Positions 15,306 through 52,492 of a DNA stretch of 64,000 bases are shown here, in pieces. Position 1 is the first letter of the stretch. Every line of letters starts with the position of its first letter. The notes beneath the pieces are model-generated. The model did not search any database, was not told the origin of the DNA, and saw only the letters and a program-made list of their open reading frames with translations. A program made the translations under genes and the position numbers. Source of the DNA: a virus (taxonomy: Duplodnaviria > Heunggongvirae > Uroviricota > Caudoviricetes); IMG/VR virus record IMGVR_UViG_2839610755_000002; one strand, written 5' to 3'.

Positions 15306-15322
15306 AAGAATTATTAGAGCAA
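15306..15322. promoter_or_regulatory. C1 operator-like site (Op99 region)
   Basis: GAATTATTAGAGCAAT, reverse-orientation match to the consensus. Confidence 0.55.
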
Positions 15323-15383
15323 TAAATTTAGAGAGAAAAATCCCACTCCACCAGCTAAAAACTGGATTGTTTTTCATAGTTGT

Positions 15384-15410
15384 TTGACAATTGCTCTAAT
15401 AAATTATAGT
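15384..15410 (+). promoter_or_regulatory. C1 operator (ATTGCTCTAATAAATTA) overlapping a promoter-like -35 TTGACA / -10 TATAGT
   Basis: 16/17 match to the consensus immediately after a TTGACA hexamer, upstream of coi/c1. Confidence 0.6.
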
Positions 15411-46853: not shown

Positions 46854-46899
46854 AAGCGGTATCGTAAAAATCAATACAATCGCAATCATATGAATAGAA

Positions 46900-47898
46900 T
46901 CAATCATTACCGCGCGACGGTTTCTGCGTGATAAACGTTTCAAGCATCTTTTCCGCAATTGCCGACCAGGTGTGACACTGGACCTTTTCAGCATTTTTCA
47001 CGCGATCAACGCGAGCAATAACCTCATCCCAATCAATCCGCGACTTGATAACCATATGGTTCACCAAAGCCAGGCGATCTGGCGGAAGGCAATCTGGCGG
47101 CGTTAATATCAACGCCCCACACATTGCCGCCTCAAGAACAGTTAATCCAAGGCTTTCGGGATGCGTAACGATAAAAACGTCACTCTTACGCAATTCAGCT
47201 GCAAATTCGGTTGCTGGTACCGGCGTCCGTCTGTATGGAGTTACCGAAATATTCCCCGGATCAATGGTAACCAATCCGTCATCGGTCAACGTTCTGGCCT
47301 CATACGGAACGGGCAGACGCTGAAGGTTCATAAGGATACTTAAGGAGTGATCAAACCCACTAACATCAAATGCAGCGTGGTCTACAAAAATACGCAGAAC
47401 ATCGTCTGTCTTGGTTTCCAGATGGAACAGTTCCTGATTCGCTGCCCATCCAACATGTTTGTTAAAGCGATTATGACGCTCTAACCTGCCGGGATTATCC
47501 AGGTACCGCCAGGTATCATCGCGGACAGTAAAAGTAATATCGACTGGTGCCGAATCCAGCATAGAACCGTCATATACCTGGGCTACCCATCCAGAGAATC
47601 GGCGACACAGTTGCATGCCTATTTCCCTGGGTACCGTAGTAAAATACCTCAATCCTGGTGCCAAAATGGCCTTCGCAGAACATGCGGTCGCAGCAGTCAA
47701 CACAGCTTCAACATAATCCTCCGGGCTTTCGACGCCAGGGGAATATGGACGATGGTATTGCAATGTTACCCCTGCCTCACTAAAGGCGCAGGCCAGGTTA
47801 TAAGCCCACATTTCCGTATATGTTTTCACATCACTGATGGCTTCAAATTTTCGCCCAATGATCAGGATGTTCATCGGCTTTTCCTCATTCCATTGCAT
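46900..47898 (-). CDS. GT-B-fold glycosyltransferase-like protein
   Basis: C-terminal HPESLGLTVLEAAMCGALIL resembles the GT1/GT4 E-x7-E region; immediately downstream of ban. Confidence 0.5.
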   Translation of the reverse strand: MQWNEEKPMNILIIGRKFEAISDVKTYTEMWAYNLACAFSEAGVTLQYHRPYSPGVESPEDYVEAVLTAATACSAKAILAPGLRYFTTVPREIGMQLCRRFSGWVAQVYDGSMLDSAPVDITFTVRDDTWRYLDNPGRLERHNRFNKHVGWAANQELFHLETKTDDVLRIFVDHAAFDVSGFDHSLSILMNLQRLPVPYEARTLTDDGLVTIDPGNISVTPYRRTPVPATEFAAELRKSDVFIVTHPESLGLTVLEAAMCGALILTPPDCLPPDRLALVNHMVIKSRIDWDEVIARVDRVKNAEKVQCHTWSAIAEKMLETFITQKPSRGND

Positions 47899-49268
47899 TA
47901 ATAATCCTCTTGCCAGTCAGCACCGGCATAGTTATCAAACCGTGAGTATTGGCCGTTAAAAGCCAATCTCACCGTGCCAATTGGGCCATTTCGTTGCTTT
48001 CCGATAATTACCTCGGCAATGCCCTTCATTTCGCTATCCGGGTGATAAACTTCGTCGCGATACAGAAACATGATCAGGTCTGCGTCCTGCTCAATTGCTC
48101 CTGATTCACGTAAATCTGAATTTACCGGTCGTTTGTCCGCACGCTGTTCAAGCGATCGATTAAGTTGTGACAATGCCACCACCGGTACTTGTAATTCCTT
48201 CGCCAAAGCCTTCAGTGAGCGAGAAATCTCGGCAATTTCCAGCGTTCGGTTATCTTGCAGCTCGGGGACGCGCATAAGTTGCAGGTAGTCGATCATAATC
48301 ATGCTCAAACCACCATTTTCTTTATAAACACGACGAGCGCGGGAACGAAGCTCTGTAGGTGTCAGGGCGCTTGAGTCATCAATAAAAATATTCTGCTTGT
48401 CCAACAGAATCCCCATTGCGCCAGAAACCCGCGCCCAATCCTCGTCGTTAAGTTGCCCTGTTCGAATACGAGTCTGATCAACGCGTGCAAGAGAAGCCAG
48501 TGAGCGCATCATCAGTTGGTGGCTCGGCATCTCAAGGCTAAAAACCAATACGGGCTTATCGTTACGGACTGCGGCATTTTCGACGAGATTCATCGCAAAC
48601 GTAGTCTTCCCCATCGATGGGCGGGCGGCGACAATAATGAGATCGGACGCCTGAAGTCCTGCCGTCTTCTTATTGAGATCGGTAAATCCGGTATCAAGCC
48701 CCGTTACACCATCATGCGGTCGCTGAAACAACTCTTCTATGCGAGATACCGTTGCATCGAGAATGCTGGCGATATCTTTTGGACCACTACCGCTCTTTTG
48801 TCGTTTTTCAGCTATTTCAAAAACGCGGCGCTCGGCCATATCCAGCAATTCATTGCTGCCCCTGCCATCCTGCGCATATCCAGCTTCAGCTATTTCATTT
48901 GCGACGGAAATCATTTCACGAACAACCGCGCGTTCACGAACGATATCCGCATAAGCACAAATATTTGCCGCGCTGGGCGTGTTCTTTGACATCTCCGCAA
49001 GGTACGCAAAACCACCGGCGCGTTCTAATTTACCGTTCTGTTCAAGTGCTTCAGCAAGTGTTATCAAATCAATCGGTTTGCCATGACTTAATAACCTCTC
49101 CATCTCACTGAAAATTTCACGATGAGCACTGGTATAAAAATCATCAGCAACTATACGATCTGCAACTTCATCCCAGCGGCAGTTATCAAGCATTAAGCCA
49201 CCAAGTACAGCTTGTTCTGCACTAAGGGAATTTGGCATGGATTCAAGAGGGGATGCAGACATTAGCAC
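47898..49268 (-). CDS. ban: Ban, DnaB-family replicative helicase
   Basis: 456 aa with DnaB-like N-terminus (SAEQAVLGGLMLD) and Walker A (ARPSMGKTTFAMN). Confidence 0.85.
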   Translation of the reverse strand: MLMSASPLESMPNSLSAEQAVLGGLMLDNCRWDEVADRIVADDFYTSAHREIFSEMERLLSHGKPIDLITLAEALEQNGKLERAGGFAYLAEMSKNTPSAANICAYADIVRERAVVREMISVANEIAEAGYAQDGRGSNELLDMAERRVFEIAEKRQKSGSGPKDIASILDATVSRIEELFQRPHDGVTGLDTGFTDLNKKTAGLQASDLIIVAARPSMGKTTFAMNLVENAAVRNDKPVLVFSLEMPSHQLMMRSLASLARVDQTRIRTGQLNDEDWARVSGAMGILLDKQNIFIDDSSALTPTELRSRARRVYKENGGLSMIMIDYLQLMRVPELQDNRTLEIAEISRSLKALAKELQVPVVALSQLNRSLEQRADKRPVNSDLRESGAIEQDADLIMFLYRDEVYHPDSEMKGIAEVIIGKQRNGPIGTVRLAFNGQYSRFDNYAGADWQEDY

Positions 49269-49542: not shown

Positions 49543-49618
49543 TGGTGGCCCCTACCGGACTTGAACCGGTGACCGTGCGATTATGAGTCGCCAGCTCTAA
49601 CCACTGAGCTAAAGGGCC
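49543..49618 (-). tRNA. tRNA with CAU anticodon (Ile2/Met-type; ileX-like acceptor stem)
   Basis: Hand-folded cloverleaf: acceptor GGCCCTT/AGGGGCC, anticodon loop CTCATAA, T-loop TTCAAGT, encoded CCA; coordinates approximate. Confidence 0.7.
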
Positions 49619-49645
49619 GGATTACTGCCAATTTTGCTTACGCTT

Positions 49646-50473
49646 TTATTTCACCGGAACAAACGGAACAGCGGTATTACTGGTCATATACTGCGGTAAT
49701 GTACCGTTCCATTTGTTGATCGCTTCCAAGTCCATAACACCGGGGTTCTGGCGCAGAGCTTCACCACGTAAACGAATGGCATCAGCTTCGGCCTGGGCTT
49801 TTGTGCGAATAGCATCAGCCTGTCCGGCAGCTTCCGCGCGCAGCATGTTGGCCTCTGCTTCACGTTGTTTGACCTCTTGCTCGCGTTGCAGGGTTTTTTG
49901 GTTTGCCGTGACTTTGGCGTTAATACTGTCAATAACTGTTGGCGGGTATTCTGGCTTACCTACATAAGAGAGGCTCATCACCTGAATGCCGATTGGCGTC
50001 ATTTCTTCCTGAATGTCTTTAAGGGCTGCATCAAGCAATTCAGATTTGCCACCGTCGATAAATTTGTCGGTGGTCATTTTGCTGGCTAATCGGTTCAGAG
50101 CATCTGCAACCTTCTGGCGTAGATCGGTATCAGTAATATCATCTACACCTTTGCGATAGGTCTGAAATACCGTTGTGACTTTTGCTGGATCAACCTTGTA
50201 GGCTACGCCGATGTGGTAACCAATGGTTGTTCCGTCGCTCATCTGGAAGCTGAACGGCTCATCGTATGTCTTCATTTGCTTAAAGGTCGGGAAGATATAA
50301 ACTTCAGTATTCAAGCCTGTCCAGTAGCGACCAACGCCAACTACTTCACCGATACCTTTATCATCCCCCAGCTTATTTACTTTGATCCCTACGTTACCTG
50401 GCTCTACCCGATCGCATCCGGTCAGACATAAAGAACCCAAAATAATCGCTGCACTAATCAACGTTTTTTTCAT
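49646..50473 (-). CDS. SPFH/band-7 family lipoprotein (Plp-like)
   Basis: Signal peptide with lipobox LTGC, then a prohibitin-like domain and Ala/Glu-rich coiled coil. Confidence 0.55.
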   Translation of the reverse strand: MKKTLISAAIILGSLCLTGCDRVEPGNVGIKVNKLGDDKGIGEVVGVGRYWTGLNTEVYIFPTFKQMKTYDEPFSFQMSDGTTIGYHIGVAYKVDPAKVTTVFQTYRKGVDDITDTDLRQKVADALNRLASKMTTDKFIDGGKSELLDAALKDIQEEMTPIGIQVMSLSYVGKPEYPPTVIDSINAKVTANQKTLQREQEVKQREAEANMLRAEAAGQADAIRTKAQAEADAIRLRGEALRQNPGVMDLEAINKWNGTLPQYMTSNTAVPFVPVK

Positions 50474-50690
50474 TAATTAATTTCCTGGTTTTTTCACGAA
50501 AAAAGACTACTGCGAAAGCCGGGTAAATGAGCGCGAGAAGGACTCCCAACAATACAAGTATTGTGCTGTTAGATGAGATCATATTTGGCAAAAGCCAAAC
50601 ATACAGAACCAGTGACACAATCAAACAGAGGACGGCATAAATATATAACCGCACCCATAGCGTTCGACATTTGTTCGGATTGTTCTGCAT
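50454..50690 (-). CDS. small membrane protein (Upl-like)
   Basis: 78 aa with two hydrophobic helices, overlapping the plp-like start. Confidence 0.4.
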   Translation of the reverse strand: MQNNPNKCRTLWVRLYIYAVLCLIVSLVLYVWLLPNMISSNSTILVLLGVLLALIYPAFAVVFFREKTRKLINEKNVD

Positions 50691-51563
50691 CCTCTCACTC
50701 CATTATTTAACGAATAAAAAAGCTGCGGTGCCGGGTTCCTCCCGGTGTCCTTTGGCTGGTTATCCACCGTGGACGTGGAAACAAGGAGAAATAATGGACA
50801 GATATAACCATTTCCCCGCGTGCGCTTAGCCGCATTCACCGCAACGGAAAGAGCATTCTTGGTGGACCTGTAGATTGGGATATGAACCCGTTACAGGAGA
50901 ATGCTCTTACCTGTTACGTGCTCCGTTTCGTGGAGCTAACGGCGGGTGATCAGACCGCACCAGACTGGACTTATTTCAGCGTTATGCTCATGCCAGAGAA
51001 TCAAACTGTGATGGTCGGTGCTGAACTCCGACACAGGGTTGTAGCAAGCCCCGCAAAGCGCGCACTACTGTAGTTGCGGCACATCAGCCTGTGCATTCAC
51101 CACAATGTTGAGAACACTGGTTGTCACGCGGCAACGCAACATTTATTCGTAGATTGGGATATGACCCCGTTACGCCAGTGTTCTCAACGTTGTAGTTGTT
51201 ATGCGTATTCTCTTACTAACCGCACACCAATACATTTCCCATCACGTTCATTTGTCTCGAAACGTGAATACTTAAGTTCGCCGTTAATAATCGCTGTTAC
51301 AACCCGTATCCCGTTAAACGCCCACATATTTCGCTCCATTTACACACATTACCAGTCGCCGGTTACGGTTCCGGCCAGGCCTCTTCCTCAACGGGGTGTT
51401 CTCCATACGGACTACCGTTTATTGGTCGTTCCTGCGGTTTATGTTGTGAAGCCAGATGCTTATCTTCTGGTTGCTTCTAAGATCTGCACTTCATCACAAC
51501 GGTAAGAGCACTCGATGCATTTAAGCCAGGCCCCATAAGGGAGAATGCTCTTACCTGTTATGT

Positions 51564-51639
51564 TGGTGCCGATTAACGGGATCGAACCGCTGACCATTCG
51601 CTTACAAAGCGACTGCTCTACCAACTGAGCTAAATCGGC
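51564..51639 (-). tRNA. tRNA-Thr (UGU)
   Basis: Hand-folded: acceptor GCCGATT/AATCGGC, anticodon loop TTTGTAA, T-loop TTCGATC, encoded CCA; coordinates approximate. Confidence 0.8.
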
Positions 51640-51643
51640 AATG

Positions 51644-51730
51644 TGGTGGGGAGTGATGGAGTCGAACCACCCGAGTCGCAATGACAGTAGATTTACAGTC
51701 TACCCCGCTACCCCTACGGACTAACTCCCC
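51644..51730 (-). tRNA. putative class II tRNA, Tyr-like (GUA anticodon, long variable arm)
   Basis: 87 nt: acceptor GGGGAGT/ACTCCCC, anticodon arm GTAGA-CTGTAAA-TCTAC, 15-nt variable arm, T-arm GGTGG-TTCGACT-CCATC, CCA. D-arm pairing is irregular. Confidence 0.45.
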
Positions 51731-51735
51731 TAAAG

Positions 51736-51810
51736 TGGCGATGGTGGGTGGATTCGAACTACCGACCAGTTGGTTAACAGCCAACTGCTCTACCGCTGAG
51801 CTACACCATC
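51736..51810 (-). tRNA. tRNA-Asn (GUU)
   Basis: Hand-folded: acceptor GATGGTG/CACCATC, anticodon arm GTTGG-CTGTTAA-CCAAC, T-loop TTCGAAT, CCA; coordinates approximate. Confidence 0.75.
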
Positions 51811-52273
51811 ACTTGCCGGGTACGTCTCCGGCGAGGGCTTCCACCTCCGTATGCTTTTCGGCGCACCGCGCCCTGGCTGCAATTCGGTAACAGGGGATGC
51901 ATAACCCTGGCTTCCAGCGTGATTAGCGCCTTCAGCATGACGGGATATACCCGTAAATTCGTGGAACTGTACCCAAAGTGCTGTTAAGCACCGCTGTTAC
52001 GCTGAAAAGAAAACGCAACAGGAAAGGACGCTGACCAACAGATGGCCCCTTCTCGTTCATCTGGTTAATCACACCAGCGCCCTTACCTGTTGTGCCTCCC
52101 CGTTCCCTAATACACAGACGGGGACACTCTGCGGTCGATTTTTTGACGGGGGACGACTCATACCCCATGGCATCTGGCTTCTTAGGCCGCTACCATCATC
52201 AGATCATCGTTTGCATTTACTTTAATGGTCAGTTTCTAAACCGCCGCAAAGTCGCTAACCATGACGAAAACCC

Positions 52274-52301
52274 TGAAAAAAACGCCCACCCGAAGATGGG
52301 C
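52274..52301 (-). terminator. intrinsic terminator downstream of dmt (GCCCATC-TTCG-GGTGGGC then T7)
   Basis: 7-bp stem with a UUCG tetraloop and a run of 7 T on the minus strand, about 190 nt after the dmt stop. Confidence 0.6.
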
Positions 52302-52475
52302 AAACTGGACGCTCGTAACGCACTTCGGCGTTGCCACTTAGGCGCATGGTCAACCTGGCAACTCGGTGGTTTGTCTGGGAGGACTAGGCCCAGCCATGCT
52401 TACCGCCGCGCCTGTCGCGGCTAACAGCTAAATCGCTCTATAAATCACGATTCATTGAGGTGATATTACACTAAT

Positions 52476-52492
52476 AAATTTATTAGAGCAAT
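52476..52492. promoter_or_regulatory. C1 operator, perfect consensus match, overlapping the dmt stop codon
   Basis: AAATTTATTAGAGCAAT is the exact reverse complement of ATTGCTCTAATAAATTT; preceded by ACACTAATAAATTT giving a near-palindromic double site. Confidence 0.7.

Follow-up and report, generated by a model that had tools for sequence, protein, structure and literature searches.

The dbn gene of P1-like phages encodes a predicted GT-B glycosyltransferase and belongs to a conserved phage gene cassette with a possible role in virion glycosylation

I analysed a 64,000-nucleotide stretch of tailed-phage DNA (IMG/VR record IMGVR_UViG_2839610755_000002; hereafter the window), and in particular the open reading frame (ORF) that follows ban, the gene of a DnaB-type replicative helicase. 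As an earlier reading of the sequence alone (the sequence-only reading) had stated, this ORF (46900-47898) encodes 332 amino acid residues and starts at the ban stop codon: its ATG (47898-47896) and the ban TAA (47900-47898) share one base in the sequence TAATG (47900-47896). Its own stop codon is a TGA (46902-46900), and the operator pair of an icd/ant-like module, which had been placed just beyond the end of the ORF, indeed follows at a distance of 46 nucleotides (nt). Judging by its sequence, the ORF is the dbn gene of phage P1 ('downstream of ban', P1_gp078) and the equivalent of Glt of phage P7, a gene that was already known and already suspected to encode a glycosyltransferase (GT). The window copy shares with P1 dbn and P7 glt the position after ban, the TAATG-type overlap, the operon with C1 operators, and the gene order. 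The DNA identity of dbn to 18 P1-group phage records is 96.5-98.3%, and to the P1 and P7 copies it is 97.9-98.3% (97.9% to dbn of NC_005856). The protein is about 98% identical to P1 Dbn (the P1/Escherichia coli cluster P0001), and the profile of phrog_2518 covers residues 1-331 (E 7.9e-239). The annotations vary: PHROG 2518 carries the label 'unknown function', P1 dbn is described as 'function unknown, possible glycosyltransferase', P7 glt as 'putative glycosyltransferase', and the dbn equivalent of phage RCS47 in RefSeq as 'glycosyltransferase family 4 protein'. The 2 kb around dbn are 100% identical to plasmid pF1273-3 of E. coli O157:H7, a P1-like plasmid-prophage of 99.8 kb, in which the dbn equivalent is annotated as a 'hypothetical protein'.

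The start codon of dbn may differ from the annotated one. A second in-frame ATG lies at 47874 (Met9), 24 nt downstream of the first, and a GAGGA Shine-Dalgarno-type sequence precedes each ATG by 6-7 nt. All the distant homologues outside the P1 group start at the position equivalent to Met9, and the first nine residues are poorly modelled in the AlphaFold prediction. The true N-terminus of Dbn may thus be 8 residues shorter. The P7 annotation puts the gene start much later (864 nt). Among 74 P1-like contigs, 50 distinct dbn alleles were found, none with an internal stop codon, and the median pairwise ratio of nonsynonymous to synonymous substitution rates (dN/dS) is 0.117 for dbn against 0.051 for ban. 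The gene is under purifying selection; with a dN/dS of 0.12 and 50 intact alleles, a decaying or spurious ORF was ruled out.

Is Dbn a glycosyltransferase? The C-terminal GT-B-type signature pointed out by the sequence-only reading (HPESLGLTVLEAAMCGALIL, residues 246-265) was borne out by structure prediction. An alignment-based AlphaFold run, used in place of a single-sequence model discarded as unusable (pLDDT, the predicted local distance difference test score, of 35), predicted two Rossmann-like beta/alpha/beta domains with a cleft between them, the GT-B arrangement. The C-terminal domain contains the GT4 signature EX7E (E248-SLGLTVL-E256), and neither glutamate varies among 23 sequences, the most distant of them at 28% identity, or within the distant set A6. 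In the fold comparison, GT4 enzymes outscored DNA glycosyltransferases, so the search for the closest GT family that had been proposed led to GT4-type GT-B enzymes; the comparators were BshA, PimA/PimB', GlgM, sucrose-phosphate synthase, and WaaG/WaaB. The predicted fold and the motif make the glycosyltransferase assignment well supported; the enzyme would be soluble, cytoplasmic, and of the retaining GT4 type. It is these two features, not the curated Pfam model, that place Dbn in GT4: Glycos_transf_1 matches residues 229-315 only (E 3.7e-5, 23.8 bits). The Pfam scan of Dbn gave no N-terminal Glyco_transf_4 match, and sequence searches of the PDB with Dbn or its profile gave nothing significant beyond a short C-terminal match. 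Sequence identity to CAZy GT4-type enzymes is just 9-15%, Dbn is shorter than they are (about 320 residues), and, judged by eye, a family-specific FVDHxxFD motif stands where the C-terminal domain begins, in place of the Arg/Lys stretch that usually binds phosphate there. The family is small and separate: of 1.84 billion cluster representatives, 375 belong to it (E<=1e-3), and most of these are stand-alone proteins of about 310 residues. In Dbn-domain fusion proteins of about 530 residues, Pfam identified one extra domain, a methyltransferase in P0106.

Dbn belongs to a conserved phage cassette that encodes three to five enzymes. Its partners are relatives of the P1 proteins PmgO and PmgP (MptE/Maf-like) and PmgQ (GT8-type). 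A PmgQ-like gene accompanies the dbn homologue in all 21 non-P1 phage loci examined, and PmgO/PmgP-like genes also neighbour it in nearly all of them. In the N15/lambda-like contig L004, the dbn homologue (56% identical) comes fourth in a series of overlapping genes, in the order phrog_4603 (labelled 'alpha-2,3-sialyltransferase', MptE-like), phrog_2111 (MptE-like), a GT-A-like gene of 189 codons, the dbn-like gene, and phrog_1962 (labelled 'glycosyltransferase'); tblastn identified the flanking families as P1 PmgO, PmgP, and PmgQ. A contiguous cassette was also found in contigs L093, L094, and L095 and in E. coli phage EP_H11, while in a 95-kb Citrobacter plasmid (L003) and in L005 and L006 the members lie within 10 kb of each other. 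A P1-centred alignment retrieved only near-identical P1-like contigs from the viral contigs, scans with the single proteins P0011 and P0015 retrieved almost nothing, and a scan of genome contigs yielded only 3 loci. An alignment of distant members (A6) yielded 12 environmental viral contigs (L098-L109), or 13 with L097, whose Dbn proteins are 24-32% identical to P1 Dbn. In all 13, a PmgQ-like gene directly follows the dbn-like gene, and of the 11 that extend upstream of the dbn-like gene, 10 have a PmgO/P-like gene before it. Natural fusions of two kinds were found: PmgO-Dbn (P0092, 522 residues, domain E-values of 2.6e-32 and 2.7e-58; 4304-5872 of L097) and PmgQ-PmgO (421 residues; 10978-12243 of L105). 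These fusions suggest that the enzymes of the cassette act together in a complex. Distant dbn-like genes (24-26% identity) also occur in two Stenotrophomonas jumbo phages of about 319 kb (OP883945 and OP752703) and in a contig of a giant-virus metagenome-assembled genome (MAG; L091), and no PmgO/P/Q partners were detected for them.

In the P1 lineage, the gene arrangement indicates that the cassette is divided between the ban operon and a pmgO-pmgP-ppp-pmgQ operon, both C1-controlled. The window pmgO, pmgP, and pmgQ genes are 97-100% identical to those of P1 (tblastn) and lie about 9 kb from dbn. My literature search found no paper describing a link of Dbn to PmgO, PmgP, or PmgQ. The PmgQ profile matches GT8 proteins (Skp1 alpha-galactosyltransferase at 2.4e-5, glycogenin at about 5e-4, and LgtC weakly) and has a conserved D-x-D. 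PmgO and PmgP are paralogues with weak MptE-like matches (E 6e-5 to 3e-4, below the curated thresholds); they have about 200 residues, against about 600 in the Maf flagellin glycosyltransferases (MptE-like, PF01973). The PmgO profile also matches the Cst-II sialyltransferase weakly (E 0.15, below threshold). No CMP-ulosonic acid other than CMP-Kdo (cytidine monophosphate-3-deoxy-D-manno-oct-2-ulosonic acid) is known in E. coli K-12. That PmgO and PmgP might be WaaZ-like Kdo transferases is a hint only, given by one weak precomputed Pfam match on a Colwellia neighbour and not reproduced in my own scan.

The sequence-only reading found the coupling of a glycosyltransferase to a replicative helicase gene unexpected. 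The position in the ban operon stands, and both ban and dbn are over-induced at 20 min in an hfq mutant in the P1vir transcriptome, which is consistent with co-transcription. The ban-dbn linkage is, on the other hand, a peculiarity of the P1 group: none of the dbn homologues at the loci examined outside the group has a helicase neighbour, and a functional tie of dbn to the helicase was rejected for this reason.

The features of the locus are collected in Table 1. In P1, the convergent gene 5 comes 46 bp after dbn, and the two genes are immediate neighbours in 75 of 81 P1-like viral contigs. Here, a diverged second copy of the immI region intervenes; it replaces the last two dbn codons (GND instead of the GNG of P1) and consists of a c4-like region and icd-like and Ant-like ORFs, preceded by a C1 operator pair. 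The same insert between dbn and gene 5 was found in 4 of the 81 contigs and in 6 of 789 matching plasmids, and the window stops short of the expected native immI site. A second C1-controlled antirepressor module could change immunity or induction behaviour. Across the window, 17 C1-operator-like 17-mers were found (up to 3 mismatches), whereas 0.35 would be expected by chance. The upstream part of the ban operon (49543-52492) is unlike that of P1; a gene for an SPFH-domain protein and a small hydrophobic ORF overlapping it occupy the place of tciA/B/C, and the four tRNA genes include a tRNA-Tyr that is absent from the P1 set.

Table 1. Features of the window around dbn and of the pmg operon
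Feature	Position	Strand	Remarks
dbn (P7 glt)	46900-47898	-	332 residues; predicted GT-B / GT4-like glycosyltransferase; EX7E at E248-E256; possible alternative start 47874 (Met9)
pmgO	37334-37996	-	MptE/Maf-like (phrog_4603); cassette partner of Dbn
pmgP	36810-37436	-	paralogous MptE/Maf-like (phrog_2111); cassette partner of Dbn
ppp	36136-36828	-	Ser/Thr phosphatase homologue; only in the P1 group does it lie between pmgP and pmgQ
pmgQ	35438-36139	-	GT-A / GT8-like glycosyltransferase, DxD motif (phrog_1962); cassette partner of Dbn
ban	47898-49268	-	DnaB-type replicative helicase; DnaB_C E 1.1e-107; equals P1 ban; stop overlaps dbn start
Divalent C1 operator pair	52465-52492	.	equivalent of P1 Obanab / Op72ab, placed at the start of the ban operon by analogy to P1 as annotated; the two sites have 0 and 2 mismatches
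Inverted pair of C1-operator-like 17-mers	46821-46853	.	46 nt past the dbn stop; part of the inserted immI-like module, not of dbn
immI-like insert (1.7 kb)	45198-46899	-	second, diverged copy of the P1 immI region (c4/icd/ant); 79-81% identical
icd-like ORF	46299-46520		within the immI-like insert
Ant/KilAC (Ant-like) ORF	45268-46302		ANT E 7e-32; within the immI-like insert
P1 gene 5	44565-45197	+	baseplate; convergent with dbn; split from dbn by the insert, adjacent in P1
C1-operator-like pair	15307-15406	.	17-mer match
C1-operator-like pair	35371-35436	.	upstream of pmgR/pmgS, as P1 OpmgRab
SPFH-domain ORF	49646-50473		upstream ban operon
Hydrophobic ORF	50454-50690		78 residues; overlaps the SPFH-domain ORF
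tRNA, Met/Ile2-type (CAT)	49543-49618		upstream ban operon
tRNAs for Thr, Tyr, and Asn	51564-51810		upstream ban operon; tRNA-Tyr additional to the P1 set

What would be the acceptor of the sugars? In eight environmental myovirus contigs (L099-L103 and L106-L108), the cassette separates the tail sheath gene from the tail tube gene, its usual neighbour. The order is sheath, PmgO-like, GT8-like, Dbn-like, PmgQ-like, FkbM-type methyltransferase, tube, chaperone, and tape measure. Positions 4664-10238 of contig L107 offer an example of a five-gene cassette in the sheath-tube gap. In contig L097, the cassette and a methyltransferase gene lie between fibre-like genes and head-closure/tail-completion genes, and in the N15/lambda-like contigs the cassette is found just upstream of the terminase. 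No transporter, flippase, ligase, or priming enzyme was found in the phage cassettes of the 21 loci, and no membrane-spanning segment was detected in Dbn, PmgO, PmgP, or PmgQ (the 19-residue Kyte-Doolittle mean never exceeds 1.6). The position in virion modules and the missing export genes together speak for virion proteins as the acceptor, since these are assembled in the cytoplasm.

I propose, with a probability of roughly 45%, that Dbn works within a conserved phage cassette for glycan assembly, with virion proteins of the tail or head as the favoured acceptor. The dbn gene would be translated from the C1-repressed ban transcript and thus be made on prophage induction. The cassette consists of Dbn, one or two MptE/Maf-like enzymes (PmgO and PmgP), and the GT8-like DxD enzyme PmgQ; in other phages a further GT-A enzyme, an FkbM-type sugar methyltransferase, or both join the set. 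I infer that the donors would be host nucleotide sugars and the product a short, sometimes methyl-capped oligosaccharide. The acceptor would most likely be one that needs no export, because the cassettes have no flippase, transporter, or ligase and several of them lie inside virion-structure modules. The function is an accessory one, dispensable on laboratory E. coli. A broader claim, that an unrecognised cassette shared by unrelated phages (the P1 group, N15/lambda-like phages, EP_H11-like phages, and environmental myoviruses) decorates virion proteins of Gram-negative phages, P1 included, is doubtful.

Several observations weigh against this proposal. The sheath proteins of the eight myovirus contigs are 55-97% identical to each other, and the sheath-tube placement is one insertion retained in one lineage, not many independent events. 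No Ser/Thr-rich extension relative to the Pfam and PHROG profiles was found on the cassette-adjacent environmental sheath, tube, and capsid proteins. Glycosylation is unmentioned in the P1 virion proteome paper, which was not designed to detect glycans, and no report of a glycan on P1 virions was found in the literature. The ban-dbn and pmg operons of P1 are C1-controlled early operons and are not purely late. The Pfam score of Dbn itself falls short of the gathering threshold of Glycos_transf_1 (26.4 bits). Finally, the cellular relatives examined sit in polysaccharide loci, which points to lipid-linked glycans. In Brucella pseudogrignonensis (3256-10804 of L089; 38% identity) and a Colwellia MAG (1-8702 of L174; 43%), these are ABC-transporter capsule-type, kps-like loci with the dbn-like gene beside an mptE-like gene at the locus end. 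The Colwellia dbn-like gene encodes only 233 residues and may be truncated. The locus of P0117 encodes sugar-nucleotide enzymes and large multi-GT proteins, and no transporter is among the genes listed.

The polysaccharide loci favour a lipid-linked envelope glycan, and the cassette might accordingly modify a host envelope glycolipid on the cytoplasmic face, such as the lipopolysaccharide (LPS) core, a capsule or Kdo linker, or units linked to undecaprenyl diphosphate. The receptor of P1 is the LPS core. Changing or masking the receptor could lead to superinfection exclusion or keep progeny from adsorbing to debris; sabotage of capsule synthesis is another conceivable outcome. Modification of a host surface molecule was one of the two functions suggested by the sequence-only reading, and the cellular relatives lend it some substance. 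I rank it second to virion glycosylation, as the main rival, and regard it as less likely, since none of the 21 phage cassettes has a flippase, transporter, ligase, or initiating phosphoglycosyltransferase. Moreover, the cassette is kept across phages of evidently different hosts with differing LPS and capsules, several lineages embed it in late structural modules, which is late for a surface change, and the P1 deletions have no plating phenotype on K-12. A seroconversion enzyme of the Gtr type (GtrABC) was rejected, as Dbn is GT-B rather than GT2/GT-C and the four proteins have no membrane segments. No GtrA flippase, GtrB, or GtrV-type neighbour was found in the window near Dbn or PmgO/P/Q.

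It is less probable still that the target of Dbn and its partners is a host protein in the cytoplasm or a small molecule, glycosylated for host takeover or anti-defence, or that the enzymes act separately on different targets. The PmgQ profile is nearest to protein-directed GT8 enzymes (glycogenin and the Skp1 galactosyltransferase), the four genes are dispensable in the laboratory like many anti-defence genes, and P1 has the phosphatase genes ppp and pap in the same region. However, a single pathway is favoured by the tight translational coupling, the conserved gene order, and the two types of natural fusion, and a sugar O-methyltransferase in the cassette fits the capping of a glycan chain.

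The remaining function suggested from the sequence, glucosylation of phage DNA to evade restriction in the manner of the T4 alpha/beta-glucosyltransferases or the RB69/HY126 arabinosyltransferases, is very improbable: GT4 enzymes score above DNA glycosyltransferases in the fold comparison, the helicase linkage is confined to P1 while elsewhere the dbn gene lies among tail and head genes, and no thymidylate-synthase homologue flanks the dbn homologues of the 21 phage loci (ThyA-like genes were not searched for exhaustively across the whole window). Known phage DNA glycosylation targets 5-hydroxymethylcytosine, 5-hydroxymethyluracil, or 5-hydroxycytosine made by such a homologue (PMC13326640). 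P1 phages with an in-frame deletion of dbn, pmgO, pmgP, or pmgQ remain infectious and form plaques (Gonzales et al. 2022, PMC9024508), in agreement with a CRISPR interference screen in which all four genes were non-essential (PMC10695390). The deletions have the parental efficiency of plating on EcoA, EcoB, and EcoK hosts, which represent type I systems only, and even wild-type P1 undergoes 10- to 1000-fold restriction (PMC9024508). Both results count against DNA glycosylation.

If the cassette does glycosylate virions, phages of Gram-negative hosts would have a counterpart to the virion glycosylation of mycobacteriophages, and this would affect their stability, immune recognition, or host range. 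Protein glycosylation would then be established for the first time in a Gram-negative phage, P1, which offers excellent genetics and existing mutants. Decorated virions would also bear on phage therapy through immune shielding, and on the P1-like phage-plasmids that are common in E. coli, including O157:H7. If LPS or capsule is altered instead, the cassette would represent a new kind of phage-directed surface remodelling. Four orphan P1 genes, dbn and the 'putative morphogenetic' pmgO, pmgP, and pmgQ, gain a common testable function.

How does the cassette compare with known systems? Clustered glycosyltransferases decorate capsid proteins in the mycobacteriophage Che8 and its relatives, according to Freeman et al. 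2023 as cited in PMC11256854. As in those sets, several phage GT genes are clustered and non-essential, and the proposed acceptor is cytoplasmic and needs no export; some lineages here also have a methyltransferase. In the non-P1 phages, three to five GT-like genes and the FkbM methyltransferase gene are contiguous, while in P1 the genes are divided over two operons. The hosts here are Gram-negative, unlike those of the mycobacteriophages, and the likeness is one of gene clustering. The T4 AGT and BGT and the RB69/HY126 arabinosyltransferases are phage-encoded GT-B enzymes like Dbn, whereas their structural scores against Dbn are lower and no hydroxylated-base pathway occurs with Dbn. The capsule / O-polysaccharide loci of Brucella and Colwellia have export genes (ABC-2 permease, ATPase, and Poly_export or Wzz-like) and lack PmgQ, both of which are reversed in the phage cassettes. 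In contrast, the pair of adjacent Dbn-like and MptE-like genes (38-43% identity) is common to these cellular loci and the phage cassettes.
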